From NCBI GenBank assembly GCA_965195345.1, contig OZ239628.1, positions 803,339-835,338 of the forward strand: a DNA stretch of 32,000 nt. The letters are read 5' to 3'. This document shows positions 3,001-31,700 of this stretch, piece by piece. Positions within the stretch are counted from its first letter, which is position 1. Every line of letters starts with the position of its first letter. Made by a program: the position numbers and the translations under genes. A model generated the notes under the pieces. That model did not search any database, was not told the DNA's origin, and saw only the letters and a program-made list of their open reading frames with translations. The DNA comes from an uncultured Thiomicrospira sp. GTDB lineage: Bacteria > Pseudomonadota > Gammaproteobacteria > CAKMZV01.

Positions 3001-5233
3001 TGCAGATGGGACTATATTACCTATTTCAGTGGTGCAGAGCAGCTCTAACCTACTTACATTCAGCACTATAACTGGGCGCATTACCCTTTCATCTATTGCG
3101 AATGCTAATGGAGTAACAACCCTTACCGTGAGTGCGGCTAATCAAAGTGGGCTAACGAACACGACAGAAGTAGCCATTACCATTAATTCCGTTAATGATA
3201 CTCCCACGCTCAGTTTATCAAGTACAAACTTAACCTTGGCATCTAATAGCACTGGTTTGATAACTGCCTTTGTCACGGATGTGGAAACAAGCAGTGCCTC
3301 ATTGATCTTTTCGGTACAACAAAATCCACCTTTGTTGCAGGTGAGTACACAAGGCAATGTCATCGTACTGAGATCGAGTGCTACTGCAGGCTCGACCACT
3401 TTAGTGATCACCGTTACTGATGGCGATGGTTCAAGCGCTTCAGCAACTGCTCGAGTTACTGTTCTATCAGGTGCTTTGAATATTGCTTTAAATGTTAAGC
3501 GCATTGATTTTTCTTGGAACACACTTCCTACAGCAAATCATTACCGCATGCTTAGCAATGTTGATTTGAATGCTGGTGGTGGTTTTGTTGATGCCAGTAG
3601 CGCAGGTTTGGTGTTTGTACCGAATAGCACGAATATTATCAATACCACAGTTTCTGCAACAGTGGATGTAGCACGCTATCTTTCTACGGCTAATGGACCA
3701 CAGTACCTGCTAGAAGCTTGTACCAGTGTGGATAATTCAGCCTGTTCTATTCATGCGCAACAAACCCTGAGCAATATTCAGTTACAGGGATTAATTGGTT
3801 ATTTTAAAGCCTCTTTTGCAGATGAGGGTGTGTTTGGTAGAGCTGTAGCAATAAGCGGTGATGGCAACACATTAGTTGTCGGTGCACCCGGAGAAAATAG
3901 CGACGCCACCGGCATCAATGGTGATCAGACGAACAATAACGCATCTGCCTCTGGTGCAGCCTATGTTTTTGTACGCAACAGTGCAGGCACATGGAGTCAA
4001 CAAGCCTATGTCAAAGCTTCTAATACAGGAGTTTTGGATCAATTTGGCACAGCTGTAGCAATAAATGATGACGGTAACACCATAGTTGTCGGTGCACTTG
4101 GGGAGGACAGTACCGCCACGGGTATCAACGGTGATCAATTAGATAATTCTGCAAGTGACTCTGGTGCAGCCTATGTTTTTGTGCGTAGTAGTACAGGTAC
4201 ATGGAGTCAACAGGCTTACATCAAGGCTTCTAATGCAGAAGCTCTTGATGATTTTGGCAGAACTGTATCGGTCACTGCTGATGGTAATACACTCGCTATT
4301 GGTGCGCCTTTAGAAGACAGTACTGCTACAGGCATTAACGGCGACGAAACAAACAATGGAGCAAGTGGCTCTGGTGCAGCCTATGTTTTTGTGCGTAGTA
4401 CTACGGGCACATGGAGTCAACAAGCTTATATCAAAGCTTCTAATGCAGAAGCTCTTGATGATTTTGGTTTTGCTGTATCGGTGAGCGATGATGGTAATAC
4501 TTTAGTTATTGGGGCATCTTTTGAAGACAGCACCGCCACGGGCATTAACGGCGATCAAACAACTAATAGTGCAAGTGCTTCTGGTGCAGCTTATGTTTTT
4601 GTGCGCAGTGCTACCGACACATGGACGCAAGAAGCCTACATCAAAGCCTCAAACACAGGTGTTAATGATCAATTTGGTTTAGCTACTTCAATTAGTGGTG
4701 ATGGTAACACACTGCTCATCAGCTCAATTGGAGAAGACAGCAATGCCACGGGTATCAACGGTGATCAAACAAACAATGCCGCAAATGGTGCTGGTGCAGC
4801 CTATGTTTTTGTGCGTAGTAGTACAGGCACATGGAGTCAACAAGCCTACATCAAGGCCTCCAATACAGGAGATCAGGATGAATTTGGTAGCGCTCTCTCA
4901 ATTAACAATGATGGTAGTATATTTGCTATCGGTGCTCCTTTTGAAGATAGTGATGTTAGTGGCATCAACGGTGATCAAATAAACAATGATGCATTTCGCG
5001 CTGGTGCAGCCTATGTTTTTGTGCGTAGTAGTACAGGCACATGGAGTCAACGAAGTTACATCAAAGCATCAAACACAGGAGTTTTAGATCGATTTGGTTC
5101 AGCTCTCTCAATAAGCGGTGATGGTAAGACACTCTCTATCGGTGCACCTTTCGAAGATAGCGATGCCACCGGCATTAATGGTGATCAGACGAATAACAAT
5201 GAGTCTGAGGCTGGTGCAGTGTATTTATATTAG
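2..5233 (+). CDS. Paralog 1 (5'-truncated by window edge): giant adhesin-like protein with cadherin-like/tandem-95-type Ig units, a C-type-lectin-like insert, an FN3-like neck and a 7-blade FG-GAP beta-propeller
   Basis: The ORF track gives 44..5233. The same frame is open back to nt 2, and nt 2-43 read TISVEVNPVNDRPVL, the tail of another Ig unit, so the real start lies upstream of the window. At least 11 Ig-like units with (N/D)DxP linkers. CTLD-like insert at 1520-2077, neck at 3488-3799, seven FG...GAP blades at 3800-5230. Ends GAVYLY, TAG at 5231-5233. Confidence 0.92.
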   Translation, partial: TISVEVNPVNDRPVLMLSLTSLSLNEDFGTFIINTTATDAEDGTLSVSVSGQAGLVTTTITTGQITLTSIAHANGRTTLTVSANDSENLFVTDEVVVIINAVNDNPVLTLSTTNLSLNEDFGTFIINTTATDIEDGVLPFTVSGQDASIFTVTTSTNQIMLTSVANANGIVTLTVSANDSENLSATTEVVVVVNAINDTPTLTFSTTQFNLNANFTPQTIATATDVDDISLLLTFALSATDVVQITTVANQFILNPIINAFGDTTITLAVSDDDGARSSSQIFTVRVNTPIASTTPTLALSTQNITLDEDFGTFIINTTATDAEDGTLSVTVSGQADLLTTNATTGQITLTSIANANGTTTLTVRATDSGNLSVTTEVVVTINAINDTPTLTLATTNITIVENATARQTISITDVADIEGSTLTFSVIASTSVFSSNPTSVVSFSDTRMITFSRQSTTAQLYYTLLPDTTGTGFIQIALTDGIDTQVTTVTVTVTEVRTSPQITQDFRTHRFFDARATRVGAVGGVLFAARGAFTGLLASTSTDGTGSAMNQLNFARSLGGSLAELYTEETYNALLGSVLVANGATTAGFDDDRFWLGLTSVPSFFGVTLPNQLDSEARYFWLSGQRVSQGLGGGTRIDVPGVYIGWGPSAPGTQGCADLILGAEVSAAFRPWASDQCFGGVFDALKALMQFPNGLPTTSSMIVQARSPITLIRLSGYDLDGSDNTLSWQVTDASGGGIATSTVYSSTGAQTLEISYTPVSGFSGTATLVVSLDDGDSATQNSTARVLVVNNTPTLTLSTNVVSLDEDFTSFVINTTATDAEGIIDFSVSTGNGIVLVTTSANAITLQSLANISGAVTLTVVADSGLLANTQTISVVVNPVNDTPTLSLSVTQRALAQNFGTFVINTTATDVESGPLGFSVSTGNGIVNVTTSVNTITLQSLANVIGDVTLTVSVSDGLLTATQSIFITVSRPFTFEVSTNTIVLDEDFNTFIINTTATAADGTILPISVVQSSSNLLTFSTITGRITLSSIANANGVTTLTVSAANQSGLTNTTEVAITINSVNDTPTLSLSSTNLTLASNSTGLITAFVTDVETSSASLIFSVQQNPPLLQVSTQGNVIVLRSSATAGSTTLVITVTDGDGSSASATARVTVLSGALNIALNVKRIDFSWNTLPTANHYRMLSNVDLNAGGGFVDASSAGLVFVPNSTNIINTTVSATVDVARYLSTANGPQYLLEACTSVDNSACSIHAQQTLSNIQLQGLIGYFKASFADEGVFGRAVAISGDGNTLVVGAPGENSDATGINGDQTNNNASASGAAYVFVRNSAGTWSQQAYVKASNTGVLDQFGTAVAINDDGNTIVVGALGEDSTATGINGDQLDNSASDSGAAYVFVRSSTGTWSQQAYIKASNAEALDDFGRTVSVTADGNTLAIGAPLEDSTATGINGDETNNGASGSGAAYVFVRSTTGTWSQQAYIKASNAEALDDFGFAVSVSDDGNTLVIGASFEDSTATGINGDQTTNSASASGAAYVFVRSATDTWTQEAYIKASNTGVNDQFGLATSISGDGNTLLISSIGEDSNATGINGDQTNNAANGAGAAYVFVRSSTGTWSQQAYIKASNTGDQDEFGSALSINNDGSIFAIGAPFEDSDVSGINGDQINNDAFRAGAAYVFVRSSTGTWSQRSYIKASNTGVLDRFGSALSISGDGKTLSIGAPFEDSDATGINGDQTNNNESEAGAVYLY
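599..886 (+). repeat. C-type Ig unit (TFSTTQF(N/S)LNANF...DVDD.SLLLTFALSATDVVQITTVAN), copy in paralog 1
   Basis: PTLTFSTTQFNLNANFTPQTIATATDVDDISLLLTFALSATDVVQITTVANQFILNPIINAFGDTTITLAVSDDDGARSSSQIFTVRVN. The same unit occurs twice in paralog 2. Confidence 0.85.
1520..2077 (+). other. C-type-lectin-like domain (CTLD) inserted in the paralog 1 stalk
   Basis: Motif order matches the CTLD fold: LGGSLAELYTEETYNAL (compare GGHLASIxSxEExxF), RFWLGLT (WIGLTD), YFWLSGQRVS (WxWSDG), YIGWG.SAP....C (YxNWxxGEPNxxxxxDC), then RPWASDQC (GxWNDxxC). There are only two Cys, in the positions expected for the C2-C3 disulfide. No canonical EPN/QPD + WND Ca/sugar triad. Confidence 0.55.
3488..5230 (+). other. 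Paralog 1 C-terminal head: FN3-like neck (3488-3799) plus seven FG-GAP blades (3800-5230)
   Basis: The neck reads LNVKRIDFSWNTLPTANHYRML...YLLEACTSVDNSACS, a Y-x-x-x-AC...C-S pattern typical of bacterial FN3-like domains. It is followed by 7 repeats of about 61 aa: FGxxVxxSxDGNTxxVGAPxEDSxATGINGDQ...SGAAYVFVRxxxGTWSQQAYIKASN. Each literally contains an FG...GAP motif and a DGN loop, as in integrin-alpha FG-GAP repeats. Confidence 0.75.
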
Positions 5234-5483
5234 AATACGTATATAGCTAAAAGAGAACTAAAATTGCTTGATTACCCATACATTATGTATTCATCAGGAA
5301 GACGGGCATACAGCTTTTCTATTTAACGTTTATTGCTTTAAATGTTATAAACTGCTTGCATGTTTCATCATACTTTAATTTATAATCAATCAAATTGTCA
5401 CAGGCAAAATGTGAGCTTCTATCACATACGCAAGCTGTAGTGAAATTGTAATTGCATAATTAAATACATTAAGGTGAATTGAT
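5234..5483 (+). promoter_or_regulatory. Spacer upstream of paralog 2 (hybrid cassette: conserved distal half, unique proximal half) with a candidate promoter and RBS
   Basis: The first about 150 nt align with the cassette found after paralogs 3-6 (acgtatatagctaaaag...cattatgtattcatcagga...aaatgttat.aactg.ttgcatg...ctttaatttataat). Candidate TTGCAT 5356-5361 / TATAAT 5381-5386, but with a 19-nt spacing (suboptimal). The proximal about 100 nt are unique. RBS AAGGTG 5471-5476. Confidence 0.4.
5398..5426. promoter_or_regulatory. Three phased TCACA / TGTGA / TCACA half-sites (12-nt register) upstream of paralog 2
   Basis: TCACA 5398-5402, TGTGA 5410-5414, TCACA 5422-5426. TGTGA-N7-TCACA resembles the CRP-type TGTGA-N6-TCACA palindrome, but the spacer is one nt too long. 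Confidence 0.25.
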
Positions 5484-8400
5484 ATGGGATATATACAGCG
5501 CTGGGCATTTCTGTTGTTGCTTGTTTTTCTGTCAGCTTGTGGTGGTGGTGATGGCGACACAATACCTCCGTCTACTAACACAACACCAACTTTAAGTCTC
5601 TCTGTCAATGCCGTAACGCTTGATGAAGATTTTGGTACCTTTATCATCAACACCACTGCCACCGACGTAGAAGATGGGACGCTGTCAGTGACCGTGTCTG
5701 GACAGGCTGGCTTGCTAACCACTAATGCTACTACTGATCAAATTACGCTCACTTCCATTGCCAATGCTAACGGAACAACTACACTCACTGTAAGTGCTAC
5801 CGATAGTGGCGCTCTTACAGTCTCCACCGAAGTGGTTGTTATTGTCAATGCCGCCAATGATACGCCCACACTTACCTTTTCAACCACTCAATTTAGTCTA
5901 AATGCAAATTTCATGCCTCAGACAATAGCAACAGCAACAGACGTTGATGATGCTTCCTTGCTCCTAACCTTTGCACTATCTGCAACCGATGTAGTACAAA
6001 TAACGACAGTTGCTAATCGGTTTATATTAAATCCTATCACTAATGCTTTTGGCGAGACAACCATCACTCTAACAGCAACTGATAGCAGCGGCAATCAGTC
6101 ATCTCAACGTTTTACAGTGCATGTTAACGCATCCATTGCATCGACAACACCTACATTAGCCTTATCAACGCAACGTATCACTTTAGATGAAGATTTTGGC
6201 ACTTTCGTCATCAACACCACTGCAAGTGATGCAGAAGATGGCGTGCTTCCCGTTGCAGTGACTGGACAAGACGCCAGTCTATTCGCCGTAACCACTTCTA
6301 CCGATCAGATAATACTTACCTCCGTTGCTAATGCCACCGGCATAGCCACGCTTACAGTAAGCATTGTTGATAGCGGAAATCTCTCCGCTACCACCGAAGT
6401 GGTTGTTGTTGTCAATGGCATCAATGATAGTCCTACATTGACACTATCAACAACGAACCTCAGCCTCAGTGAAGATTTTGGCACTTTCGTCATCAACACC
6501 ACTGCAAGTGATGCAGAAGATGGCGTGCTTCCCGTTGCAGTGACTGGACAAGACGCCAGTCTATTCGCCGTAACCACTTCTACCGATCAGATAATACTTA
6601 CCTCCGTTGCTAATGCCACCGGCATAGCCACGCTTACAGTAAGCATTGTTGATAGTGGAAATCTCTCCGCTACCACCGAAGTGGTTGTTGTTGTCAATGG
6701 CATCAATGATAGTCCTACCTTGACACTATCAACAACGAACCTCAGCCTCAGTGAAGATTTTGGCACTTTCGTCATCAACACCACTGCAAGTGATGCAGAA
6801 AATGGCAGGCTTCCCGTTGCAGTGACTGGACAAGATGCCAGTCTATTCGCCGTAACCACTTCTACCGATCAGATAATACTTACCTCCGTTGCTAATGCCA
6901 ACGGAACAGCCACACTCACTGTAAGCATTGTTGATAGTGGAAATCTCTCCGCTACCACCGAAGTGGTTGTTGTTGTCAATGGCATCAATAGTGCACCTGC
7001 ATTGACGCTATCAACAACGAACCTCAGCCTCAGTGAAGATTTTGGCACTTTCGTCATCAACACCACTGCCACCGATGTAGAAGATGGCGTGCTTCCCGTT
7101 GCAGTGACTGGACAAGATGCCAGTTTATTCGCCGTAACCACTTCTACCGATCAGATAATACTTACCTCCGTTGCTAATGCCAACGGAACAGCCACACTCA
7201 CTGTAAGCATTGTTGATAGTGGAAATATCTCCGCTACCACCGAAGTGGTTGTTGTTGTCAATGCCATCAATGATAGTCCTACATTGACACTATCAACAAC
7301 GAACCTCAGCCTCAGTGAAGATTTTGGCACTTTCGTCATCAACACCACAGCAAGTGATGCAGAAGATGGCGTGCTTCCCGTTGCAGTGACTGGACAAGAT
7401 GCCAGTCTATTCGCCGTAACCACTTCTACCGATCAGATAATACTTACCTCCGTTGCCAATGCCAACGGAACAGCCACGCTTACAGTAAGCATTGTTGGTA
7501 GCGGAAATCTCTCCGCTACCACCGAAGTGGTTGTTGTTGTCAATGCCATCAATGATAGTCCTACATTGACACTATCAACAACGAACCTCAGCCTCAGTGA
7601 AGATTTTGGCACTTTCATCATCAACACCACTGCCACCGATGCAGAAGATGGCGTGCTTCCCGTTGCAGTGACTGGACAAGATGCCAGTTTATTCGCCGTA
7701 ACCACTTCTACCGATCAGATAATACTTACCTCCGTTGCTAATGCCAACGGCATAGCCACACTTACAGTAAGCATTGTTGATAGTGGAAATCTCTCCGCTA
7801 CCACCGAAGTGGTTGTTGTTGTCAATGCCATCAATGATAGTCCTACATTGACACTATCAACAACGAACCTCAGCCTTAGTGAAGATTTTGGCACTTTCGT
7901 CATCAACACCACTGCAAGTGATGCAGAAGATGGCGTGCTTCCCGTTGCAGTGACTGGACAAGATGCCAGTCTATTCGCCGTAACCACTTCTACCGATCAG
8001 ATAATACTTACCTCCGTTGCCAATGCCAACGGAACAGCCACGCTTACAGTAAGCATTGTTGGTAGCGGAAATCTCTCCGCTACCACCGAAGTGGTTGTTG
8101 TTGTCAATGCCATCAATGATAGTCCTACATTGACACTATCAACAACGAACCTCAGCCTCAGTGAAGATTTTGGCACTTTCATCATCAACACCACTGCCAC
8201 CGATGCAGAAGATGGCGTGCTTCCCGTTGCAGTGACTGGACAAGATGCCAGTTTATTCGCCGTAACCACTTCTACCGATCAGATAATACTTACCTCCGTT
8301 GCTAATGCCAACGGCATAGCCACACTTACAGTAAGCATTGTTGATAGTGGAAATCTCTCCGCTACCACCGAAGTGGTTGTTGTTGTCAATGCCATCAATG

Positions 8401-11400
8401 ATAGTCCTACATTGACACTATCAACAACGAATCTCAGTCTCAGTGAAGATTTTGGCACTTTCGTCATCAACACCACTGCCACCGATGTAGAAGATGGCGT
8501 GCTTCCTGTTGCAGTGACTGGACAAGATGCCAGTCTATTCGCCGTAACCACTTCTACCGATCAGATAATACTTACCTCCGTTGCCAATGCCAACGGAACA
8601 GCCACACTCACTGTAAGCATTGTTGATAGTGGAAATCTCTCCGCTTCCACCGAAGTGGTTGTTGTTGTCAATGCCATCAATGATAGTCCTACATTGACAC
8701 TATCAACAACGAACCTCAGCCTCAGTGAAGATTTTGGCACTTTCGTTATCAACACCACAGCAAGTGATGCAGAAGATGGCGTGCTTCCCGTTGCAGTGAC
8801 TGGACAAGATGCCAGTTTATTCGCCGTAAGCACTTCTACCGATCAGATAATACTTACCTCCGTTGCCAATGCCAACGGAACAGCCACACTTACTGTAAGC
8901 ATTGTTGATAGCGGAAATCTCTCCGCTTCCACCGAAGTGATTGTTATTGTCAATGGCATCAATAGTTCACCTGCATTGACGCTATCAACAACGAACCTCA
9001 GTCTCAGTGAAGATTTTGGCACTTTCGTCATCAACACCACAGCAAGTGATGCAGAAGATGGCGTGCTTCCCGTTGCAGTGACTGGACAAGATGCCAGTCT
9101 ATTCGCCGTAACCACTTCTGCCAACCAGATAATACTCACCTCCGTAGCTAATGCCAATGGCAGAGCTACGCTTACAGTAAGCATTGTTGATAGTGGAAAT
9201 CTCTCCGCTTCCACCGAAGTGGTGGTGCTTGTCAACGCCGTCAATGACACGCCCACACTTACCTTTTCAACCACTCAATTTAGTCTAAATGCAAACTTTA
9301 CCCCGCAAACAATAGCAACAGCAACAGACGTTGATGATGCTTCCTTGCTCCTAACCTTTGCACTATCTGCAACCGATGTAGTACAAATAACGACTGTTGC
9401 TAATCGGTTTATATTAAATCCTATCACTAATGCTTTTGGCGAGACAACCATCACTCTAACAGCAACTGATAACAGCGGTAATCAGTCATCTCAAATTTTC
9501 ACAGTGCGCGTTAACGGATTCCCTACATTAGCCTTATCAACGCAGCGTGTCACTTTAGATGAAGACTTTGGTACTTTCGTCATCAATACCACTGCAAGTG
9601 ATGCAGAAGATGGCGTGCTTCCCGTTGCAGTGACTGGACAAGATGCCAGTCTATTCGCCGTAACCACTTCTACCAATCAGATAATGCTTACTTCCATTGC
9701 TAATGCCAACGGCATAGCCACACTCACTGTAAGCATTGTTGATAGTGGAAATCTCTCCGCTACCACCGAAGTTGTTGTTGTTGTCAATGCCATCAATGAT
9801 AATCCTACATTGACGCTATCAACAACGAACCTCAGCCTCAGTGAAGATTTTGGCACTTTCGTCATCAACACCACTGCAAGTGATGCAGAAGATGGCGTGC
9901 TTCCCGTTGGAGTGACTGGGCAAGATGCCAGTCTATTCGCCGTAACCACTTCTACCGATCAGATAATACTTACCTCCGTTGCTAATGCCAACGGCATAGC
10001 TACGCTTACAGTAAGCATTGTTGATAGTGGAAATCTCTCCGCTACCACCGAAGTGGTTGTTGTTGTCAATGCCATCAATGATAGTCCTACATTGACACTA
10101 TCAACAACGAACCTCAGTCTCAGTGAAGATTTTGGCACTTTCGTCATCAACACCACAGCAAGTGATGCAGAAGATGGCGTGCTTCCCATTGCAGTGACTG
10201 GACAAGATGCCAGTCTATTCGCCGTAACCACTACTACCAATCAGATAATACTTACCTCCGTTGCTAATGCCAACGGCAGAGCTACGCTTACAGTAAGCAT
10301 TGTTGATAGTGGAAATCTCTCCGCTACCACCGAAGTGGTTGTTGTTGTCAATGCCATCAATGATAGTCCTACATTGACACTATCAACAACGAACCTCAGT
10401 CTTAGTGAAGATTTTGGCACTTTCGTCATCAACACCACTGCAAGTGATGCAGAAGATGGCGTGCTTCCCGTTGCAGTGACTGGACAAGATGCCAGTCTAT
10501 TCGCCGTAACCACTTCTACCGATCAGATAATACTTACCTCCGTTGCCAATGCCAACGGAACAGCCACGCTTACAGTAAGCATTGTTGATAGCGGAAATCT
10601 CTCCGCTACCACCGAAGTGGTTGTTGTTATCAATGCCATCAATGATAGTCCCACATTGACACTATCAACAACGAACCTCAGCCTTAGTGAAGATTTTGGC
10701 ACTTTCGTCATCAACACCACTGCAAGTGATGCAGAAGATGGCCTGCTTCCCGTTGCAGTGACTGGACAAGATGCCAGTCTATTCGCCGTAACCACTTCTG
10801 CCGATCAGATAATACTTACCTCCGTTGCCAATGCCAACGGAACAGCCACGCTTACAGTAAGCATTGTTGGTAGCGGAAATCTCTCCGCTACCACCGAAGT
10901 GGTTGTTGTTGTCAATGCCATCAATGATAGTCCTACATTGACACTATCAACAACGAACCTCAGCCTCAGTGAAGATTTTGGCACTTTCATCATCAACACC
11001 ACTGCCACCGATGCAGAAGATGGCGTGCTTCCCGTTGCAGTGACTGGACAAGATGCCAGTCTATTCGCCGTAACCACTTCTACCAATCAGATAATACTTA
11101 CCTCCGTTGCTAATGCCACCGGCATAGCCACGCTTACAGTAAGCATTGTTGATAGCGGAAATCTCTCCGCTACCACCGAAGTGGTTGTTGTTGTCAATGC
11201 CGTTAATGACACTCCAACGCTCAGTTTATCAAGTACAAACCTAACTTTGACAGCTAATACCACCGCTTTAATCACTGCCTTTGGCGTAGATGTGGAAACA
11301 AGCAGTGCTTCATTGATCTTTTCTGTACAACAAAACCCATCTTTGTTGCAGGTGAGTACACAAGGCAATGTTATCGTACTAAGAGCGGGTGCTACTACAG

Positions 11401-13250
11401 GCTCTACCACTTTAGTGATCACCGTTACTGATGGTGATGGCTTAAGCACTTCAGCAACCGCTCAAGTTACTGTTGTATCAGGTGTTTTGAATGTTTTGAA
11501 TGTAAATTTAAATGTTAAGCGCATTAACTTTTCTTGGAACACACTTCCTGCAGCAAATCATTACCGCATGCTTAGCAATGTTGATGTGAATGCTGGTGGT
11601 GGTTTTGTTGATGCCAGTAGCGCAGGTTTGGTGTTTGTACCGAATAGTACGAATATTATCAATACTACAGTCTCTGCAACAGTGGATATAGCACGCTATC
11701 TTTCTACGGCTGATGGACCACAGTATCTGCTACAAGCTTGTAGTAGTGTTGACAATTCCGTTTGTTCTGATCTTGCGCAAGAATCTCTGAGTAATATTCA
11801 GTTAGAGGGATTGATTGGTTATTTCAAGGCTTCTAATACAGATGCAGATGATGAATTTGGTGAGGGTGTCGCAATAAGCGGTGATGGCAACACATTAGTT
11901 GTCGGTGCACCATTTGAGGACAGCACCGCCACTAGTATCAACGGCGATCAAACAAACAATAGTGCGGGTGATTCTGGTGCAGCCTATGTTTTCGTGCGCA
12001 GTAGTACGGGCAGCTGGCGTCAACAAGCATACCTTAAAGCCTCTGATGCACAAGCTAATGATCAGTTTGGTGCAGTTGTAACAATAAGCAATGACGGTAA
12101 TACTATAGTTGTTGGTGCAGAATTTAAGGATGTTGGCGCTCCTGGCGGTGTCCCCCAAGGCGACGCTGGTGCAGCCTATGTTTTCGTGCGCAGTAGTACC
12201 GGCAGCTGGCGTCAACAAGCTTTCATCAGCGCTTCTAATCTAAATGCCAATGATCGGTTTGGAAGAACTGTATCGGTTGCTGCTGATGGTAATACACTCG
12301 CTATCGGTGCACCTTTAAAAAGTGTACCTGGCACAAATCCTTTCACGGGTCAACCTGCGAGTATAGCTAATGTTGGTACAGCCTATGTTTTTGTACGCAG
12401 TAGTACGGGTACATGGAGTGAGCAAGCTTTATTGACACCACCTGCTGTAACACTTAATGCTAATTTTGGTAATGCTGTATCGATGAGTGGTGATGGTAAT
12501 ACCATGGTCGTTGGTGCAGTTGGTGACCAAAGTACTGGCATGGGTATCGACAGTGATGAATTCACCACTTTTGTTTTTGGTTCTGGTGCAGCCCATGTTT
12601 TTGTACGCAGTAGTACGGGTACATGGAGTCGGCAAGCTTATATTAAAGCCTCAAATTCAGAAAGTGTTGATCTCTTTGGTACAGCTGTATCGATGAGCGG
12701 TGATGGTAATACCATGGTCGTTGGTGCACCACAAGAAGACAGCAATGCCACGGGTATCGACGGCGATCAAGCAAATAATGGTAGTGGTGCTGATGGTATT
12801 AATTCAAATTCTGGTGCAGCCTATGTTTTTGTGCGCAGTAGTACGGGCACATGGACGCAAGATGCCTATATCAAAGCCTCAAATACAGGACTTGGTGATG
12901 AGTTTGGTTTTGCTGTTTCAATGAGAAGTGATGGTAATGCGTTCGTTGTTGGTGCACCATTTGAGGACAGCAATGCCACGGGAATCAACGGGGGGCAAGC
13001 AGATGGTGCTAATAACGCTGGTGCAGCCTATCTGTTTGTGCGCAGCAGCGCAGGCACATGGAGTCAACAAGCCTACACCAAAGCCTCAAACACAGGAGCT
13101 GATGATGCGTTTGGTTCAGTTCTCTCAATAAGCAGTGATGGTACAACGTTTGCTGTTGGCGCACCCAATGAAAACAGCAGTGCCACTGGTATCAATGGTA
13201 ATCAAACAGACGATAGTCAAGATAACGCTGGTGCAGCGTATTTGTATTAG
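5484..13250 (+). CDS. Paralog 2: 2588-aa predicted lipoprotein adhesin with 21 Ig/cadherin-like units (17 near-identical), an FN3-like neck and a 7-blade FG-GAP propeller
   Basis: ATG at 5484 is preceded by AAGGTG (5471-5476, 7-nt spacer). The N-terminus MGYIQRWAFLLLLVFLSAC is a signal peptide with lipobox LSAC (Cys codon 5538-5540). Unit order: one A-type, C-type, 11 B-type, C-type, 6 B-type, one terminal. Neck 11508-11819, blades 11820-13247. Ends GAAYLY, TAG. Confidence 0.95.
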   Translation: MGYIQRWAFLLLLVFLSACGGGDGDTIPPSTNTTPTLSLSVNAVTLDEDFGTFIINTTATDVEDGTLSVTVSGQAGLLTTNATTDQITLTSIANANGTTTLTVSATDSGALTVSTEVVVIVNAANDTPTLTFSTTQFSLNANFMPQTIATATDVDDASLLLTFALSATDVVQITTVANRFILNPITNAFGETTITLTATDSSGNQSSQRFTVHVNASIASTTPTLALSTQRITLDEDFGTFVINTTASDAEDGVLPVAVTGQDASLFAVTTSTDQIILTSVANATGIATLTVSIVDSGNLSATTEVVVVVNGINDSPTLTLSTTNLSLSEDFGTFVINTTASDAEDGVLPVAVTGQDASLFAVTTSTDQIILTSVANATGIATLTVSIVDSGNLSATTEVVVVVNGINDSPTLTLSTTNLSLSEDFGTFVINTTASDAENGRLPVAVTGQDASLFAVTTSTDQIILTSVANANGTATLTVSIVDSGNLSATTEVVVVVNGINSAPALTLSTTNLSLSEDFGTFVINTTATDVEDGVLPVAVTGQDASLFAVTTSTDQIILTSVANANGTATLTVSIVDSGNISATTEVVVVVNAINDSPTLTLSTTNLSLSEDFGTFVINTTASDAEDGVLPVAVTGQDASLFAVTTSTDQIILTSVANANGTATLTVSIVGSGNLSATTEVVVVVNAINDSPTLTLSTTNLSLSEDFGTFIINTTATDAEDGVLPVAVTGQDASLFAVTTSTDQIILTSVANANGIATLTVSIVDSGNLSATTEVVVVVNAINDSPTLTLSTTNLSLSEDFGTFVINTTASDAEDGVLPVAVTGQDASLFAVTTSTDQIILTSVANANGTATLTVSIVGSGNLSATTEVVVVVNAINDSPTLTLSTTNLSLSEDFGTFIINTTATDAEDGVLPVAVTGQDASLFAVTTSTDQIILTSVANANGIATLTVSIVDSGNLSATTEVVVVVNAINDSPTLTLSTTNLSLSEDFGTFVINTTATDVEDGVLPVAVTGQDASLFAVTTSTDQIILTSVANANGTATLTVSIVDSGNLSASTEVVVVVNAINDSPTLTLSTTNLSLSEDFGTFVINTTASDAEDGVLPVAVTGQDASLFAVSTSTDQIILTSVANANGTATLTVSIVDSGNLSASTEVIVIVNGINSSPALTLSTTNLSLSEDFGTFVINTTASDAEDGVLPVAVTGQDASLFAVTTSANQIILTSVANANGRATLTVSIVDSGNLSASTEVVVLVNAVNDTPTLTFSTTQFSLNANFTPQTIATATDVDDASLLLTFALSATDVVQITTVANRFILNPITNAFGETTITLTATDNSGNQSSQIFTVRVNGFPTLALSTQRVTLDEDFGTFVINTTASDAEDGVLPVAVTGQDASLFAVTTSTNQIMLTSIANANGIATLTVSIVDSGNLSATTEVVVVVNAINDNPTLTLSTTNLSLSEDFGTFVINTTASDAEDGVLPVGVTGQDASLFAVTTSTDQIILTSVANANGIATLTVSIVDSGNLSATTEVVVVVNAINDSPTLTLSTTNLSLSEDFGTFVINTTASDAEDGVLPIAVTGQDASLFAVTTTTNQIILTSVANANGRATLTVSIVDSGNLSATTEVVVVVNAINDSPTLTLSTTNLSLSEDFGTFVINTTASDAEDGVLPVAVTGQDASLFAVTTSTDQIILTSVANANGTATLTVSIVDSGNLSATTEVVVVINAINDSPTLTLSTTNLSLSEDFGTFVINTTASDAEDGLLPVAVTGQDASLFAVTTSADQIILTSVANANGTATLTVSIVGSGNLSATTEVVVVVNAINDSPTLTLSTTNLSLSEDFGTFIINTTATDAEDGVLPVAVTGQDASLFAVTTSTNQIILTSVANATGIATLTVSIVDSGNLSATTEVVVVVNAVNDTPTLSLSSTNLTLTANTTALITAFGVDVETSSASLIFSVQQNPSLLQVSTQGNVIVLRAGATTGSTTLVITVTDGDGLSTSATAQVTVVSGVLNVLNVNLNVKRINFSWNTLPAANHYRMLSNVDVNAGGGFVDASSAGLVFVPNSTNIINTTVSATVDIARYLSTADGPQYLLQACSSVDNSVCSDLAQESLSNIQLEGLIGYFKASNTDADDEFGEGVAISGDGNTLVVGAPFEDSTATSINGDQTNNSAGDSGAAYVFVRSSTGSWRQQAYLKASDAQANDQFGAVVTISNDGNTIVVGAEFKDVGAPGGVPQGDAGAAYVFVRSSTGSWRQQAFISASNLNANDRFGRTVSVAADGNTLAIGAPLKSVPGTNPFTGQPASIANVGTAYVFVRSSTGTWSEQALLTPPAVTLNANFGNAVSMSGDGNTMVVGAVGDQSTGMGIDSDEFTTFVFGSGAAHVFVRSSTGTWSRQAYIKASNSESVDLFGTAVSMSGDGNTMVVGAPQEDSNATGIDGDQANNGSGADGINSNSGAAYVFVRSSTGTWTQDAYIKASNTGLGDEFGFAVSMRSDGNAFVVGAPFEDSNATGINGGQADGANNAGAAYLFVRSSAGTWSQQAYTKASNTGADDAFGSVLSISSDGTTFAVGAPNENSSATGINGNQTDDSQDNAGAAYLY
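5865..6149 (+). repeat. C-type Ig unit, first copy in paralog 2 (precedes the 11-unit B array)
   Basis: Near-identical to 9252-9521. Differences seen: M/T, S/N, R/I, H/R, plus an ASIASTT extension at the junction. Confidence 0.9.
6150..9251 (+). repeat. In-frame tandem array: 11 x 282 bp (94 aa) near-identical B-type cadherin-like units in paralog 2
   Basis: The unit-initial CCT/CCC (Pro of PTLTLS) recurs at 6150, 6432 and onward, with the next unit type starting at 9252, an exact 282-nt period. The antisense shadow ORFs in the track also recur every 282 nt (6305, 6587, 6869 ... 8843). Unit consensus: PTLTLSTTNLSLSEDFGTFVINTTASDAEDGVLPVAVTGQDASLFAVTTSTDQIILTSVANANGTATLTVSIVDSGNLSATTEVVVVVNAINDS. 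Confidence 0.95.
9252..9521 (+). repeat. C-type Ig unit, second copy in paralog 2 (precedes the 6-unit B array)
   Basis: Dispersed duplicate of 5865-6149, so paralog 2 is organised as [C unit + B array] twice. Confidence 0.9.
9522..11213 (+). repeat. In-frame tandem array: 6 x 282 bp further B-type units in paralog 2
   Basis: Begins at CCT 9522 (FPTLALSTQRVTLDEDFG) and ends before CCA 11214, where the terminal Ig unit begins. 6 x 282 = 1692 nt exactly. Confidence 0.95.
11508..13247 (+). other. Paralog 2 C-terminal head: FN3-like neck (11508-11819) plus seven FG-GAP blades (11820-13247)
   Basis: Same motifs as paralog 1. Seven FG..DGN cores: FGEGVAISGDGNT, FGAVVTISNDGNT, FGRTVSVAADGNT, FGNAVSMSGDGNT, FGTAVSMSGDGNT, FGFAVSMRSDGNA, FGSVLSISSDGTT. 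Blades 2-4 carry non-canonical loops. Confidence 0.75.
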
Positions 13251-13514
13251 AAATAAGTTAAAGTAGTAACTTCAAAAGTCTAAAAGTTTTCCAAAAATAT
13301 AAGCAAATTATTTTTGCAAGAGCACATGTTATTCCATTAGCTTTTATTCTATCGTTATGATTCTTATTGCTCTGAATTATTTCAGTTATTAGAGTAATTT
13401 GTAGTCTATAATGTCACGATTATTGACTCACTACATAGTGAGTATTTACTATTGCTATCTATGTGTAAATCACATGATGTTATCTTGTACTAACTTTCAC
13501 ACTGTGAGGATAAA
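13251..13514 (+). promoter_or_regulatory. Unique AT-rich spacer upstream of paralog 3 (not homologous to the common cassette)
   Basis: Only the first few nt after the stop resemble the other spacers. TATAAT at 13407-13412 has no good -35. A perfect palindrome lies at 13426-13443. RBS GTGAGGA 13504-13510. Confidence 0.35.
13426..13443. promoter_or_regulatory. Perfect 18-bp palindrome ACTCACTA-CA-TAGTGAGT upstream of paralog 3 (possible operator)
   Basis: actcacta and tagtgagt are exact reverse complements with a 2-nt centre. It lies 13 nt downstream of TATAAT 13407-13412 and about 70 nt upstream of the ATG. Confidence 0.3.
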
Positions 13515-15986
13515 ATGTTAAAGAATTCAGAGAAAAAAATATATCACGTAAGTTGGGGGTCTCTACTACTTTTTGTCTTTTTATCTGCCTGTGGTGGTGG
13601 CGGTGGCGGTGGCGGTGATACAGCACCTCCGATTATTGCGAGCACAACACCAAATTTAAGTGTATCGACCAATGCCATAACACTCAATGAAGATTTTGGC
13701 ACTTTTATCATCAACACCACTGCTACCGATGCAGAAGATGGAACGTTGTCAGTAACCGTATCTGGACAGGCAGGCTTGATAACCACTGATATCACCACTG
13801 ATAGAATTACCTTAAATTCTGTTGCCAATGCTAATGGCGTAACTACACTTACTGTACGTGCTACCGATAGCGGAAATCTCTCCGCTTCCACCGAAGTAGT
13901 TGTCACCATCAACGCCGTCAATGATGCTCCAACGTTAAGTTTATCAACTACAAACTTAATCTTATTACCCAATAGTACTGGTAGGATAACTGCCGTTTTT
14001 TCGGATGTGGAAACAAGTAGTAACGCATTGAATTTTGCGTTCCCAGTAAATACAGCTTTGGTGCAGGCGAGTAGGGAAGGCAATGATGTCATCGTGCTGA
14101 TATCGAGTGTTGTTGCAGGCTCAACTACTTTTGTTGTTACCGTCACTGATCAAGGTAACTTAAGCGCTTCAGCAACAGCTCGAGTTACTGTTCTCTCTAA
14201 TGCTTTGGATGTCGCGTTAAATGTTAAACGCATTGATTTTTCTTGGGGCAACTTCCCTGAAGCAAATCATTACCGCATGCTCAGTAATGTCGATTTAAAC
14301 GCTGGTGGTGGTTTTATTGATGCTAGTAGTGCAAACTTGGTATTTTTGCCAAATAGTACAAATATTATCAATACTACAGTCTCTGCAATAGTGGATGTAG
14401 CACGCTATCTTCCTGCGGTTAATGATCCGCAGTATCTGCTACAAGCTTGTACCAGTGTGGATGATTCCGTTTGTTCTAATCTTGCGGAAGGAACTCTGAC
14501 CAATGCTCAGTTAGAAGGATTGATTGGTTATTTCAAAGCTTCTAATACGGGAATGGGAGATATATTTGGTGATGCTGTAGCAATAAGTGGTGATGGTAAT
14601 ACGCTTGCAGTCGGTGCTGCTTTTGAGGACAGCGACGCCAGGGGCATCAACGGGGATCAATCAGACAATGATGCAGGTAACGCTGGTGCAGTGTATGTTT
14701 TTGTACGCAACAGTGCAGGAACATGGACACAACAAGCATACATTAAAGCCTCGAACTCACAAGGAAATGATCAATTCGCTGCCAGTGTAGACCTAAGCAA
14801 TGATGGTAATACCTTATTGGTTGGTGCACGTTTTGAAGGGAGTGGCGCTACTGGTATTAACGGTGATCAATCCAACAATAATCTTGACCAATCTGGTGCA
14901 GGCTATATTTTTGTACGCAACAGTGGAGGCACATGGAACCAGCAAGCTTACGTCAAAGCCTCTAATACGGGTCGGATTGATCAATTTGGTGCAGCTATAG
15001 CAATAAGCGGTGAAAGTGGTGCTACCGCATTTGTTGGTGCGCCAAATGAGGACAGTGGTGCGACTGGCATCAACGGTAATGAATCTGATAGTGTTGGTGC
15101 TGTAACTAACTCTGGTGCAGTCTATGCTTTTGTGCGTGATAGCATTGGTGCGTGGAGTCAACAAGCCTATATCAAAGCATCTAATACAGGAGCTGAAGAT
15201 GATTTTGGTGAAGTTTTATCAGCGAGTAGAAATGGCAATACCGTCATCGTTGGTGCGCCAAATGAGGACAGCGTTGCCACGGGCATCAACGGGGATCAAT
15301 TAGACAATTCTACAGCTAACTCTGGTGCAGCCTATGTTTTCGTGCGTAGTAGTACGGATACATGGAGTCAACAAGCCTATATCAAAGCCTCTAATACAGG
15401 ATTTACTGATCGGTTTGGTGGAGCTGTATCGATAAGTGGTGATGGTAATACCATAGTCGTTGGTTCATCTTTTGAAGACAGCAACTCTACCGGTGTTAAT
15501 GGGGTTCAAACGAATAATGGCGCAAGCAACTCTGGTGCAGCCTATGTTTTTGTGCGCAGTAGTACGGGCAGATGGAGTCAACAAGCCTACCTAAAAGCCT
15601 CCAATACAGATACAAATGATCAATTTGGTATAGCTTTAGCAATAAGCGGTGATGGTAACTCCATCATTGTTGGTGCAGTTGGGGAAGGAAGCGATGCCAC
15701 AGGTATTAACGGTGTTCAAAGCAATGATCTCTCAAATAGGGGACCTCGTGGTGCAGCCTATCTCTTTGTGCGTAGTGGTACGACATGGAGTCAACAAGCC
15801 TACATCAAATCCTCGAATACAGGTATTTTGGATGAGTTTGGTAACTCTGTTTCAATAAGTAATGATGGTAAAACGTTTGCTGTTGGTGCACCCACTGAAG
15901 ATAGCACTGCCACCGGCATTAATGGCGATCAATCAAATAATGGTACTGGTATTGGTTCAAATGCTGGTGCAGTGTATTTGTATTAG
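13515..15986 (+). CDS. Paralog 3: 823-aa predicted lipoprotein, the shortest stalk (2 Ig-like units), with an FN3-like neck and a 7-blade FG-GAP propeller
   Basis: ATG at 13515 follows GTGAGGA (13504-13510). The N-terminus MLKNSEKKIYHVSWGSLLLFVFLSAC carries lipobox LSAC (Cys codon 13590-13592), followed by Gly x8. Neck 14217-14528, blades 14529-15983. Ends GAVYLY, TAG. Confidence 0.95.
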   Translation: MLKNSEKKIYHVSWGSLLLFVFLSACGGGGGGGGDTAPPIIASTTPNLSVSTNAITLNEDFGTFIINTTATDAEDGTLSVTVSGQAGLITTDITTDRITLNSVANANGVTTLTVRATDSGNLSASTEVVVTINAVNDAPTLSLSTTNLILLPNSTGRITAVFSDVETSSNALNFAFPVNTALVQASREGNDVIVLISSVVAGSTTFVVTVTDQGNLSASATARVTVLSNALDVALNVKRIDFSWGNFPEANHYRMLSNVDLNAGGGFIDASSANLVFLPNSTNIINTTVSAIVDVARYLPAVNDPQYLLQACTSVDDSVCSNLAEGTLTNAQLEGLIGYFKASNTGMGDIFGDAVAISGDGNTLAVGAAFEDSDARGINGDQSDNDAGNAGAVYVFVRNSAGTWTQQAYIKASNSQGNDQFAASVDLSNDGNTLLVGARFEGSGATGINGDQSNNNLDQSGAGYIFVRNSGGTWNQQAYVKASNTGRIDQFGAAIAISGESGATAFVGAPNEDSGATGINGNESDSVGAVTNSGAVYAFVRDSIGAWSQQAYIKASNTGAEDDFGEVLSASRNGNTVIVGAPNEDSVATGINGDQLDNSTANSGAAYVFVRSSTDTWSQQAYIKASNTGFTDRFGGAVSISGDGNTIVVGSSFEDSNSTGVNGVQTNNGASNSGAAYVFVRSSTGRWSQQAYLKASNTDTNDQFGIALAISGDGNSIIVGAVGEGSDATGINGVQSNDLSNRGPRGAAYLFVRSGTTWSQQAYIKSSNTGILDEFGNSVSISNDGKTFAVGAPTEDSTATGINGDQSNNGTGIGSNAGAVYLY
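13593..13616 (+). repeat. (GGY)8 in-frame microsatellite encoding Gly8 directly after the lipobox Cys of paralog 3
   Basis: ggt ggt ggc ggt ggc ggt ggc ggt, then gat. Confidence 0.9.
14217..15983 (+). other. Paralog 3 C-terminal head: FN3-like neck (14217-14528) plus seven FG-GAP blades (14529-15983)
   Basis: KRIDFSWGNFPEANHYRML neck. Seven blade cores: FGDAVAISGDGNT, FAASVDLSNDGNT, FGAAIAISGESGAT, FGEVLSASRNGNT, FGGAVSISGDGNT, FGIALAISGDGNS, FGNSVSISNDGKT. Confidence 0.75.
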
Positions 15987-16235
15987 AAGACGTATATAGC
16001 TAAAAGGCAATTAGAGTTGTTTGATTACTCGAGCATTATGTGTTCATCAGGAGAACAGGCGCACAACTTTCTTACTTAACGTTTCGCTGTAAATGTTATG
16101 AACTGTTTGCGAATTTTCTCATGCTTTAATTTGTAATGATTGAGATTGCTGGATTGTAGATATATTGCTTTTATCAAACACATAAACTGTTGTGATAATT
16201 GTGATTTCATAGTTAAAAATAAAATATAGGCCTAA
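15987..16235 (+). promoter_or_regulatory. Full-length conserved intergenic cassette upstream of paralog 4
   Basis: Aligns along its whole length with 19203-19449 and 23923-24170. TGTAAT 16132-16137. Proximal TTGTGA 16190-16195 with an A/T-rich hexamer 17-18 nt downstream. Confidence 0.4.
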
Positions 16236-28794: not shown

Positions 28795-31700
28795 ATGAAA
28801 ATGAAACATTTAAAACGTTGGGGATTTCTACTACTATTTGTCTTTCTAACTGCCTGTGGGGATGACACAACACCTTTGTCTACTAATATTAACACAACAC
28901 CAAACTTAAGTCTCTCTGTCAATACCTTAACACTTGATGAAGATTTTGGCACTTTTATCATCAATACCACTGCTACTGATGCAGAAGATGGGATACTGCC
29001 AGTAACCGTATTTGGACAGGCTGGCTTGCTAACCACTGATGTCACTACTGGCCAAATTACGCTCACTTCCATTGCTAATGCTACCGGCATAGCTACGCTC
29101 ACAGTGCGTGTTGTTGATAGCGAAAACCTCCCCGTTTCCACCGAAGTGGTGGTGACCGTAAACGCCATCGATGATACGCCTGTTTTGACGTTATCAACGA
29201 CTAACCTCAGTCTCAGTGAAGATTTTGGCACTTTTATTATCAACACTACAGCAACTGATGTAGAGGATGGTGTATTATCTTTTACAGTATCTGGTCAAGA
29301 TACAAGTGTATTAACAGTCAGAACTTCCACCAATCAGATAATACTCACCTCCGTTGCTAATGCCACCGGAACAGTCACACTCACTGTAAGCGCTACCGAC
29401 AGTGAGGCTCTTACAGCTAACACCGAAGTGGTGGTGATCATCAATGACATCGATGATACTCCTGTGCTGACAATATCAACAACGAACCTCAGCCTCAGTG
29501 AAGACTTTGGCACTTTTATCATCAACACCACTGAGGGTGATATAGAAGATGGTGTATTACCTTTTACAGTATCTGGTCAAGATGCAAGTATATTAACAGT
29601 TAGCACTGCTATCAATCAGATAATACTCACCTCCGTTGCTAATGCCAACGGAACAGTCACACTCACTGTAAGTGCTACTGATAGTGAGGATCTTACAGTC
29701 TCCACCGAAGTGGTGGTGATTATTAATGCCGTCAATGATACGCCTGTATTGACGCTATCAACAACCAACCTTAGCCTCAGTGAAGACTTTGGCACTTTCA
29801 TCATCAACACCACTGCAAGTGATGCAGAAGATGGCGTGCTTCCCGTTGCAGTGACTGGACAAGATGCCAGTCTATTCGCCGTAACCACTTCTACCGATCA
29901 GATAATACTTACCTCCGTTGCCAATGCCAACGGAACAGCCACGCTCACTGTAAGCATTGTTGATAGCGGTAACCTCTCCACTTCCACTGAAGTGGTGGTT
30001 GTTGTCAACGCCATCAACGATACGCCTGTATTGACGCTATCAACATCTAACCTCAGTCTCGATGAGGATTTTGGCACTTTCATCATCAACACCACTGCAT
30101 CTGATGCAGAAGATGGTGTGTTATCTTTTACGGTATCTGGTCAAGATGCAAGTGTATTAACAGTCAGCACTTCTATCAATCAGATAATGCTCACTTCCGT
30201 TGCTAATGCTAATGGAACAATGACTCTTACAGTCAGTGCAACCGATCAAGGTGGACTAACGACAACGGCAAAAATAACTATTGTCATTAATCCTGTTGAT
30301 GACAATCCAATACTTAATTTATCAGCAACAAACTTTAACTTACTAATGGATACAGCTGCGGTGCTCACTGCCTTTGGTGTAGATGTGGATTCAAGCAGTG
30401 CCGTGTTGGTCTATTCTGCACAGCAAGAAACACCTCTGTTAAATCAGATACAAATAGCAAGCAATACCATCGCGCTGGGAGCAGGTAATACTTTAGGCTC
30501 AACCACTTTGGTAATCACCGTCACTAATGACAGAGGATTAAGTACTTCTGCAACCGCTCGAGTTACTGTTTTATCTGCTATTTCGAATACTTTTTTAAAT
30601 GTAAGTTTAAATGTTAAGCGGATTAACTTTTCTTGGAGTATGCTTCCTGCAGCCAATCATTACCGCATGCTCAGCAATGTGAATTTGGCTACAGCGCGTG
30701 GCTTTGTTGATGCCAGTAGTGCACATGCAGTGTTTGCACCGAATAGCACCAATATTATCAATACTACAGTCTCTGCGACAGTAAATGTGGCGCGTTATCT
30801 TTCTACGGCTGATAGACCAGAGTATCTGCTACAAAGTTGTACGAGTGTGGATAATTCAGCCTGTTCTACTTATGCACAAGCAGCCCTGAGCAATACTCAA
30901 ATAAAGGGATTGATTGGTACTTTCAGACCCACTTGGCCAGACTTTGGAGATCAATTTACTGAAAGTCTGACATTCAATGGCGCTGGTAATATTTTTGTTG
31001 CTGGTGCACCTTTTGAAAGCAGTGACTTTACTGGCATCAACACATTTGTTTTAGTAGGTTCAAACAATAGGGCTAGGGCCTCTGGCGCAGCCTATATTTT
31101 TGAGCTTAGTAGCACTGGCACGTGGAGTCAACGAGCTTACCTCAAAGCCTCTAATACAGGAGTTGGTGATTTCTTTGGTAGAAGTCTGGCAATAAGTGGC
31201 GACGGCAATACTTTAGCTGTTGGGGCAACTTTGGAAGACGGCACCTCCACTGGCGTAAACGGGTATCAATTTAGCGATAATGAACTTCAATCCGGTGCAG
31301 TTTATGTTTTTGTGCGTAGTAGTGCCGGTGCATGGAGCCAGCAAGCGTACATAAAAGCTTCTAATACAGAAATGTATGAACAATTTGGTAGAGCTCTAAC
31401 AGTCAGCAGTAACGGCAATACCATCTTTGTTGGTGTCCCTCGTGAGGCTACTGGATTAGACGGCGATCAAACAAGAAACGGTGCACCTCAATCTGGCGGA
31501 GTCTATGTTTTTGAGCGCAACAGTTCGAGCGTATGGAGCCAAACAGCTTTAATCAAAGCTTCTAATTTACAGGCTGGTGACAATTTTGGTGAGGCTGTAT
31601 CGGTAAGCAGTGACGGCAATGTTTTACTTGTTGGTGCCCCTTTTGAAGCCAGTCTCGCTACTGGAATTAACGGAGATCAAACAAACAATGCTGGAAATGA

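Follow-up and report, generated by a model that had tools for sequence, protein, structure and literature searches.

How does a single bacterial gene come to carry 17 tandem units of one 94-residue domain, and is such an array still changing? The question is raised by a 32,000-nucleotide stretch of DNA from an uncultured Thiomicrospira sp. (contig OZ239628.1; hereafter the window), which corresponds to positions 803339-835338 of a single-contig genome of 1.92 Mb, estimated to be 99.7% complete. The open reading frame list and its translation place a lipoprotein gene (P0001) at 5484-13250 of the window, with a frame of 7,767 nt and a product of 2,588 amino acids; it lies on the plus strand, as do all window features whose positions are given below. 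The answer that we consider probable is that the repeated units, called B units, form a cadherin-like stalk that holds a propeller head off the cell, and that the array grew by unequal recombination in an ancestor of (B-C)n arrangement and was afterwards partly homogenised and reshuffled.

The gene product is ordered as a signal peptide, 21 immunoglobulin (Ig)- or cadherin-like stalk units, a neck, and a seven-blade FG-GAP propeller. The 17 B units, each exactly 282 nt long, were delimited by the spacing of the motif DFGTF and an in-register cut, and occur in two runs, B1 to B11 (6150-9251) and B12 to B17 (9522-11213). In the translation the DFGTF motif recurred at a spacing of 94 residues ten times, then after a single gap of 184 residues, and then at five more spacings of 94 residues. 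Between the two runs is C2, the second C-type unit (9252-9521; 270 nt), which was placed by BLAST against C1 and against a paralog, g775. Preceding the array are B0, an old and diverged B-like unit (5586-5867, by in-register alignment to the B units), and C1, the first C-type unit, which is Big_9-like (5865-6149; Pfam Big_9, E 1.1e-7, residues 125-212, with the register taken from BLAST). Tandem Repeats Finder returned a single array (6188-11209, period 282, 17.9 copies), which in the DFGTF register gives the same coordinates, 6150-11213, and the same arrangement of 11 units, a C-type unit and 6 units as the original prediction of 17 in-frame 282-nt units. The period is exactly 282 nt without any indel, and the frame is open over 2,588 codons. 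It had also been stated that any in-register exchange keeps the frame, which holds since 282 nt is 94 codons.

The units had been described as near-identical in DNA, including at synonymous positions, with variation limited to a handful of sites. This was an overstatement. Pairwise differences among the 17 units ranged from 0 to 44 of 282 nt, with a mean of 19.3 (93.2% identity; range 84-100%), and there were 16 distinct sequences among the 17 units as DNA and 15 as protein. Variation was found at 79 of the 282 nucleotide positions, 45 of them parsimony-informative, and at 32 of the 94 residues, and pairwise protein identity among the units averaged 92.0% and was never below 81.9%. Compared with the consensus, the codons showed 93 synonymous and 74 non-synonymous differences. 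Non-synonymous (dN) and synonymous (dS) divergence, estimated by the Nei-Gojobori method, were 0.046 and 0.158 for all 17 units (dN/dS 0.29) and 0.031 and 0.109 for the 13 interior units; in other words, dS is 0.11-0.16. Each of the residue variants that had been listed was present (FVIN/FIIN, TASDAEDG/TATDVEDG/TATDAEDG, NANGTATL/NANGIATL/NATGIATL/NANGRATL, IVDSGN/IVGSGN, and NAINDSP/NGINDSP/NGINSAP/NGINSSP). Within this gene, older units have diverged much further than those of the array: between B0 and the B units, 140-151 of 282 nt are different and dS is saturated (1.43, Nei-Gojobori). Selection at the protein level was rejected as the sole cause of the similarity among units, dS being low relative to B0.

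The arrangement of the differences along the units indicates how the array was shaped. Variants were found as contiguous tracts common to several units and were not scattered. In the four-gamete test, 278 of the 780 pairs of biallelic informative sites showed all four gametes, and the Hudson-Kaplan minimum was 9 recombination events. A PHI-type statistic, the mean incompatibility of sites no more than ~100 bp apart, was 0.301 as compared with 0.365 +/- 0.017 after permutation, and none of 5,000 permutations of site order (0/5000) gave a value as low. Slow, tree-like divergence of the units was rejected by this test, and the interior units formed an unresolved polytomy in a maximum-likelihood tree. 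Together with the 518-bp duplicate described below, these results bear out the claim that the variants occur as a shuffled mosaic rather than in a tree-like pattern. The original prediction was thus sound in its layout, its listed variants and its mosaic, and wrong in the near-identity of the units and the handful of variable sites.

The most recent event in the array can be read from an exact-repeat comparison. A 518-bp exact direct repeat within 7350-8431 occupies 7350-7867 and 7914-8431, a lag of 564 bp; there is no difference between units 6 and 8, and 2 nt separate units 5 and 7. This repeat is a recent duplication of two units, 5-6 and 7-8. An exact-tract comparison identified a 260-bp tract in unit 16 (10801-11060) that matches units 5 and 7 exactly, with copies at 7429 and 7993, and the sharing of this tract therefore indicates exchange across the C-type unit. 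The interior units were on average 13.6 nt apart, and the three units that adjoin C-type units, B1, B11 and B12, were 26-35 nt from the interior ones. This greater divergence is the edge effect expected of unequal crossover. Counted in register, the units of the array share 432 exact tracts that reach 27 bp; of these, 187 reach 50 bp and 20 reach 100 bp. In E. coli, efficient pairing requires ~25 bp or more. These tracts are ample substrate for homologous recombination.

Exchange has not been confined to this gene. A search of the genome with a B-unit profile found 14 paralogous genes in tandem on a single strand at 760.7-835.6 kb, two further paralogs at 1229-1236 kb, and more distant units within a 14,357-aa protein. 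The gene under study is one of 16 paralogs that share the propeller head, and it alone contains a long run of high-scoring B units, while in its sisters one to three B-type units alternate with C units. In a maximum-likelihood tree of the 70 units that scored at least 90 bits in this genome, 15 of the array units fell in one shallow, unresolved cluster, and B1 and B12 clustered with the post-C units of paralogs. A B-type unit in the last paralog of the window (29743-30024) nests in the B clade and is 21/282 nt from B5. Another, in the neighbouring 988-aa paralog (16629-16899), is 97-98% identical to array units, with a 9-nt deletion in the linker, and it testifies to exchange between genes. 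C2 is 98.5% identical to the C unit of g775, as compared with 94.4% to C1 of its own gene. Minor alleles in the array were also present, at the same site, in the units of other genes for 43 of the 48 shared alleles and 34 of the 40 singletons, as against ~26 and ~23 if the alternative bases were random. This indicates that much of the variation in the array is family variation that has been moved and reshuffled, rather than new mutation.

The nature of the units was examined with a B-B pair, which scored below the curated Pfam cut-offs for Big_9 (19.7 vs 23.6 bits) and Cadherin_5 (14.6 vs 26.5 bits); Pfam Cadherin (PF00028) was not among its matches. In a sequence search of the PDB the best match was to the extracellular cadherin (EC) repeats EC1-2 of CDHR2 (5czr, E 9.5e-5), with protocadherins and cadherin-23 next in the ranking. 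The motifs of cadherins could be aligned, XEX as S-E-D, DXD as D-A-E-D, DXNDN as N-x-I-N-D-x-P, and XDX as Asp74. An exhaustive protein search with the unit gave 1,615 proteins (E <=0.001), the majority of them giant and with many repeats, and several of these homologues pass the Pfam thresholds for Big_9, Cadherin_5 and Cadherin_4. In an alignment of 78 didomains, Asp27, Asp74, Asn92 and Pro95 were invariant or nearly so. Asp74, at least 90% conserved in this set, aligns with the XDX calcium ligand of cadherins, and a Gly74 variant has spread to three non-adjacent units. The AlphaFold2 didomain model built from this alignment consists of two beta-sandwiches of seven to eight strands (mean predicted local distance difference test score, pLDDT, 97.4). 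Its top Foldseek matches were the cadherin-like stem of SraP (4m00, 4m03) and then protocadherin tandems (E 5e-9, query-normalised TM-score 0.61). By prediction only, the B units would therefore be individually folding domains that form an elongated rod.

In the reading that we prefer, the 17 B units would be folded, cadherin-like beta-sandwich domains that account for the greater part of an extended stalk on a lipid-anchored surface protein, and this stalk would project the C-terminal seven-blade FG-GAP propeller from the cell. The signal peptide (5484-5540), as read from the translation, has the lipobox L-S-A-C at residues 16-19, with Cys19 followed by GGG, and the gene product is probably lipid-anchored and surface-exposed. 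The propeller (11820-13247) was recognised as FG-GAP_2 (Pfam PF14312, seven stretches, E 3.4e-61), is 47-49% identical to propellers from many phyla, and is presumed to be the ligand-binding head. The array would have expanded within this one gene from the (B-C)n arrangement that is still visible in the sister paralogs, growing by unequal homologous recombination in steps of at least one whole unit. It would since have been reshuffled and in part homogenised by gene conversion and unequal crossover, which would have involved both its own units and those of the 15 paralogs. Cadherin-type domains are ~4-4.5 nm long; at such a length per unit some 70-75 nm of the stalk would come from the B array alone, with linkers that calcium may stiffen. 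Given the amount of recombination substrate, it is plausible that the array still changes length in populations, which would occur in steps of 94 aa. Somewhat unlikely, in our view, is a bolder version in which this is a live length-switching locus in a cadherin-stalked family anchored by lipid, a type of anchor that Periscope-type proteins have not been described to use, and the 16 paralogs are a library of stalk units shared by gene conversion, so that the same type of head would be held at many changeable heights.

Several observations weigh against this account, and the first of them concern the age of the array. A 317-kb contig in the European Nucleotide Archive (L052; ERZ25066422 contig_40) contains the same cluster at ~90-92% DNA identity and represents the nearest relative. 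Orthologue dS between the two was 0.157 for a 2,645-aa gene and 0.125 for a gene of 1,490 or 1,485 aa. Because dS among the units (0.11-0.16) is about as large as dS to this relative (0.125-0.157), the units have been homogenised to a moderate degree and for the most part not recently. Synonymous divergence at this level also argues that most of the array is not young, and most of it may have been stable for a long time. The lengths of the orthologous paralogs are stable as well, at 2,645 aa in both genomes and at 1,490 vs 1,485 aa. All of this agrees with an old and now essentially static array, one that expanded at about the split from the nearest relative, has been kept similar mainly by purifying selection, and is no present-day hotspot; the unit dS values, for all units (0.158) and interior units (0.109), match those of the orthologues, and the unit dN/dS of 0.29 is likewise in keeping with such a history. 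We nevertheless regard a static array as unlikely. Recombination is evident in the PHI and four-gamete tests, and the 518-bp exact duplicate and the unit pairs that are 2-6 nt apart represent events far younger than the average. Moreover, selection on the protein cannot keep synonymous dS at 0.1 while B0 saturates at 1.43.

The comparison with the relative also showed change on the scale of whole genes. Where the gene under study should be (window 5398-13023), the relative has a 768-bp spacer after its 2,645-aa gene (L052:17939-18706), and this spacer holds only a frameshifted remnant in which the neck end is fused to the last propeller blade. The remnant looks as if a former paralog had lost its interior through a deletion between repeated parts. 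The 823-aa and 988-aa genes of the window (13515-19202) are matched in the relative by a single hybrid gene of 815 aa (L052:18707-21154), the 5' part of which is 85% identical to the 823-aa gene and the 3' part 90% identical to the 988-aa gene. The sequence of this hybrid suggests that, in one of the two lineages, tandem paralogs underwent an unequal crossover. The remnant and the hybrid gene together indicate that the cluster gains and loses whole genes by recombination between paralogs. No in-register change in the number of B units was seen in the comparison with the relative contig. A protein search with the C-terminal region for an allele from the same species gave only the genome's own paralogs (65-81%) and the proteins of one relative contig (66-78%). 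The units of two genomes of the same genus (G001 and G002) were at most 53% identical, and a scan of metagenome contigs gave no close match.

The second group of observations concerns the number of units. Four public sequencing runs, all from one study, contain this DNA, and the best of them matches 52% of the sampled 31-mers. Short-read unitigs over 4500-14500 were no longer than 422 bp; none spanned the array, and there were zero joints within it. The short-read unitigs gave no direct sign of a change in copy number, and neither the protein collection nor the metagenome contigs yielded a second strain. Three ratios of repeat to single-copy unitig depth could be compared with the 31-mer multiplicity of the assembly: 237/32 = 7.5 vs 8.9, 174/32 = 5.5 vs 6.9, and 40/4.5 = 8.9 vs 8.6. 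The agreement is rough and does not fix the number of units, and the count of 17 is that of the assembly. It is conceivable that the unit count or the variant mosaic is in part an artefact of assembly or polishing, introduced by the long-read consensus or by short reads mis-mapped from other units or paralogs. The array is without an independent spanning read, and the best run holds just the 52% of sampled 31-mers given above. The minor alleles are mostly the states of paralog units, and mis-mapped polishing reads would produce the same pattern. An artefact is very unlikely all the same. The genome is one contig of 1.92 Mb and 99.7% estimated completeness, the 282-nt period is exact and free of indels, and the 2,588-codon frame is intact, as is the 14,357-aa frame elsewhere in the genome. 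The unitig depths fit the 31-mer multiplicities of the assembly, if roughly, and the variants lie in contiguous tracts common to several units, unlike scattered errors. The closed genome, together with the regular period and the open frame, speaks for the quality of the assembly.

The remaining observations of this kind concern the stalk and its export. The DRE calcium motif of cadherins is absent from the B unit, which has A-N-A-N/T-G in its place, and Gly stands instead of Asp74 in units 5 (7278-7559), 7 (7842-8123) and 16 (10650-10931). Calcium stiffening of the linkers may accordingly be partial. An export route to the surface was not found, and zero secretion genes flank the paralog cluster. 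A search for the surface-lipoprotein exporter SlipAM (Slam) returned zero matches, yet the control genomes were likewise without a match. A gene for a Gram-negative porin is upstream of the cluster.

The proposed stalk and head resemble several known systems. Periscope Proteins, which include SasG/Aap, Rib/alpha C, Sgo_0707, Esp, CdrA and inverse autotransporters (Whelan et al. 2021, PMC8201768; review PMC9704523), were sought as proteins with repeats of >50 residues that are >=80% identical, and the key observation for the class is that repeat number differs between closely related strains (PMC8201768, PMC9704523). The 17 units described here, of 94 aa and on average 92.0% identical as protein (81.9% at the lowest), fall within those limits, and in repeat length, identity and folded domains the gene product fits the Periscope Protein concept. 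The likeness would extend to the design of a single-chain surface protein, in which a tandem stalk of similar, individually folding domains has a functional domain at its far end and the similarity of the DNA permits in-frame recombination within the gene. Strain-to-strain variation in length, however, belongs to the class, whereas this array is known from one assembly. The protein also has an N-terminal lipobox and a C-terminal head, in contrast to the LPXTG motif, beta-barrel or two-partner secretion of the described members. Further differences are that the repeat is a divergent cadherin-like domain, that the gene is one of 16 head-sharing paralogs, and that the host is a small-genome (1.92 Mb) and probably marine bacterium rather than a culture-collection pathogen.

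A second likeness is to the calcium-stiffened extenders of RTX (repeats-in-toxin) adhesins, such as region II of MpIBP, the ice-binding adhesin of Marinomonas primoryensis, which has ~120 near-identical beta-sandwich units of ~100 residues (PMC5550230, PMC7493085). Like this region, the present protein would have a long run of beta-sandwiches with acidic calcium-binding linkers that projects distal ligand-binding domains, but it differs in its lipoprotein signal, its 17 units as compared with ~120, and its propeller head. No RTX family was among its Pfam matches, and its C-terminus is the last propeller blade, without a type I secretion signal; nor was there an N-terminal retention module. The best structural matches to the B-B model were the SraP modules of Staphylococcus aureus (4m00, 4m03) and the EC tandems of cadherins and protocadherins (5dzy, 5czr). 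In SraP two cadherin-like modules are a rigid stem for a lectin module. The B unit differs from these in its length (94 vs ~110 residues), in the missing DRE and in having Asn as the first Asp of DXNDN. Leptospira LigA/LigB and the Vlp lipoproteins of Mycoplasma also combine an N-terminal lipid anchor with outward-facing tandem repeats, which are Big_2 domains in Lig and are short and variable in number in Vlp. Those proteins belong to other domain families and lack a propeller head, and divergence among the Lig repeats is much greater.

The design is therefore one known from other bacteria, and the principle is not new; the phenomenon is ordinary and the example well quantified. Proteins of this type were defined in pathogens, and the array is a clean, quantified case from outside that group in which recombination has shaped a repeat stalk. 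About 75 kb (4%) of the 1.92-Mb genome is given to one tandem family of propeller-headed lipoproteins, and the locus is also one at which an assembly is fragile. If its length did prove to switch, it would offer a natural system for studying the tuning of adhesion by stalk length in a free-living bacterium.

The other parts of the gene and its surroundings can be summarised briefly. The array is followed by a terminal D-type Ig-like unit (11205-11471), which matched Pfam Big_9 below threshold (22.1 bits, E 2.9e-4, residues 1908-1996). A simple scan for promoters and terminators gave nothing beyond shuffled expectation in the spacer upstream of the gene and two terminator-like hairpins in the spacer downstream. 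Zero Rfam families matched either strand of 4500-14500, and the open frames on the minus strand within the array were treated as by-products of the repeat. The G+C content of 6001-11000 is 46-47%, as compared with 39.8% for the genome, and the GC skew is strongly negative (-0.15 to -0.16). The raised G+C is not specific to the array, the entire paralog cluster being at ~40-47%, above the genome mean.

Other long coding arrays were found in the genome. One, at 293243-304862, has 6.3 copies of 1854 bp with 93% matches and is in the 14,357-aa frame. Further coding arrays, at 1002027-1008964 and 1618443-1621915, have 22 copies of 315 bp (90%) and 5.5 copies of 633 bp (97%). Directly downstream of the paralog cluster, 837368-849003 contains a gene for a LodA-type lysine-epsilon-oxidase with its flavoprotein partner, an LRAT-family gene, and an SpvB/RHS-repeat pair that resembles a polymorphic toxin.

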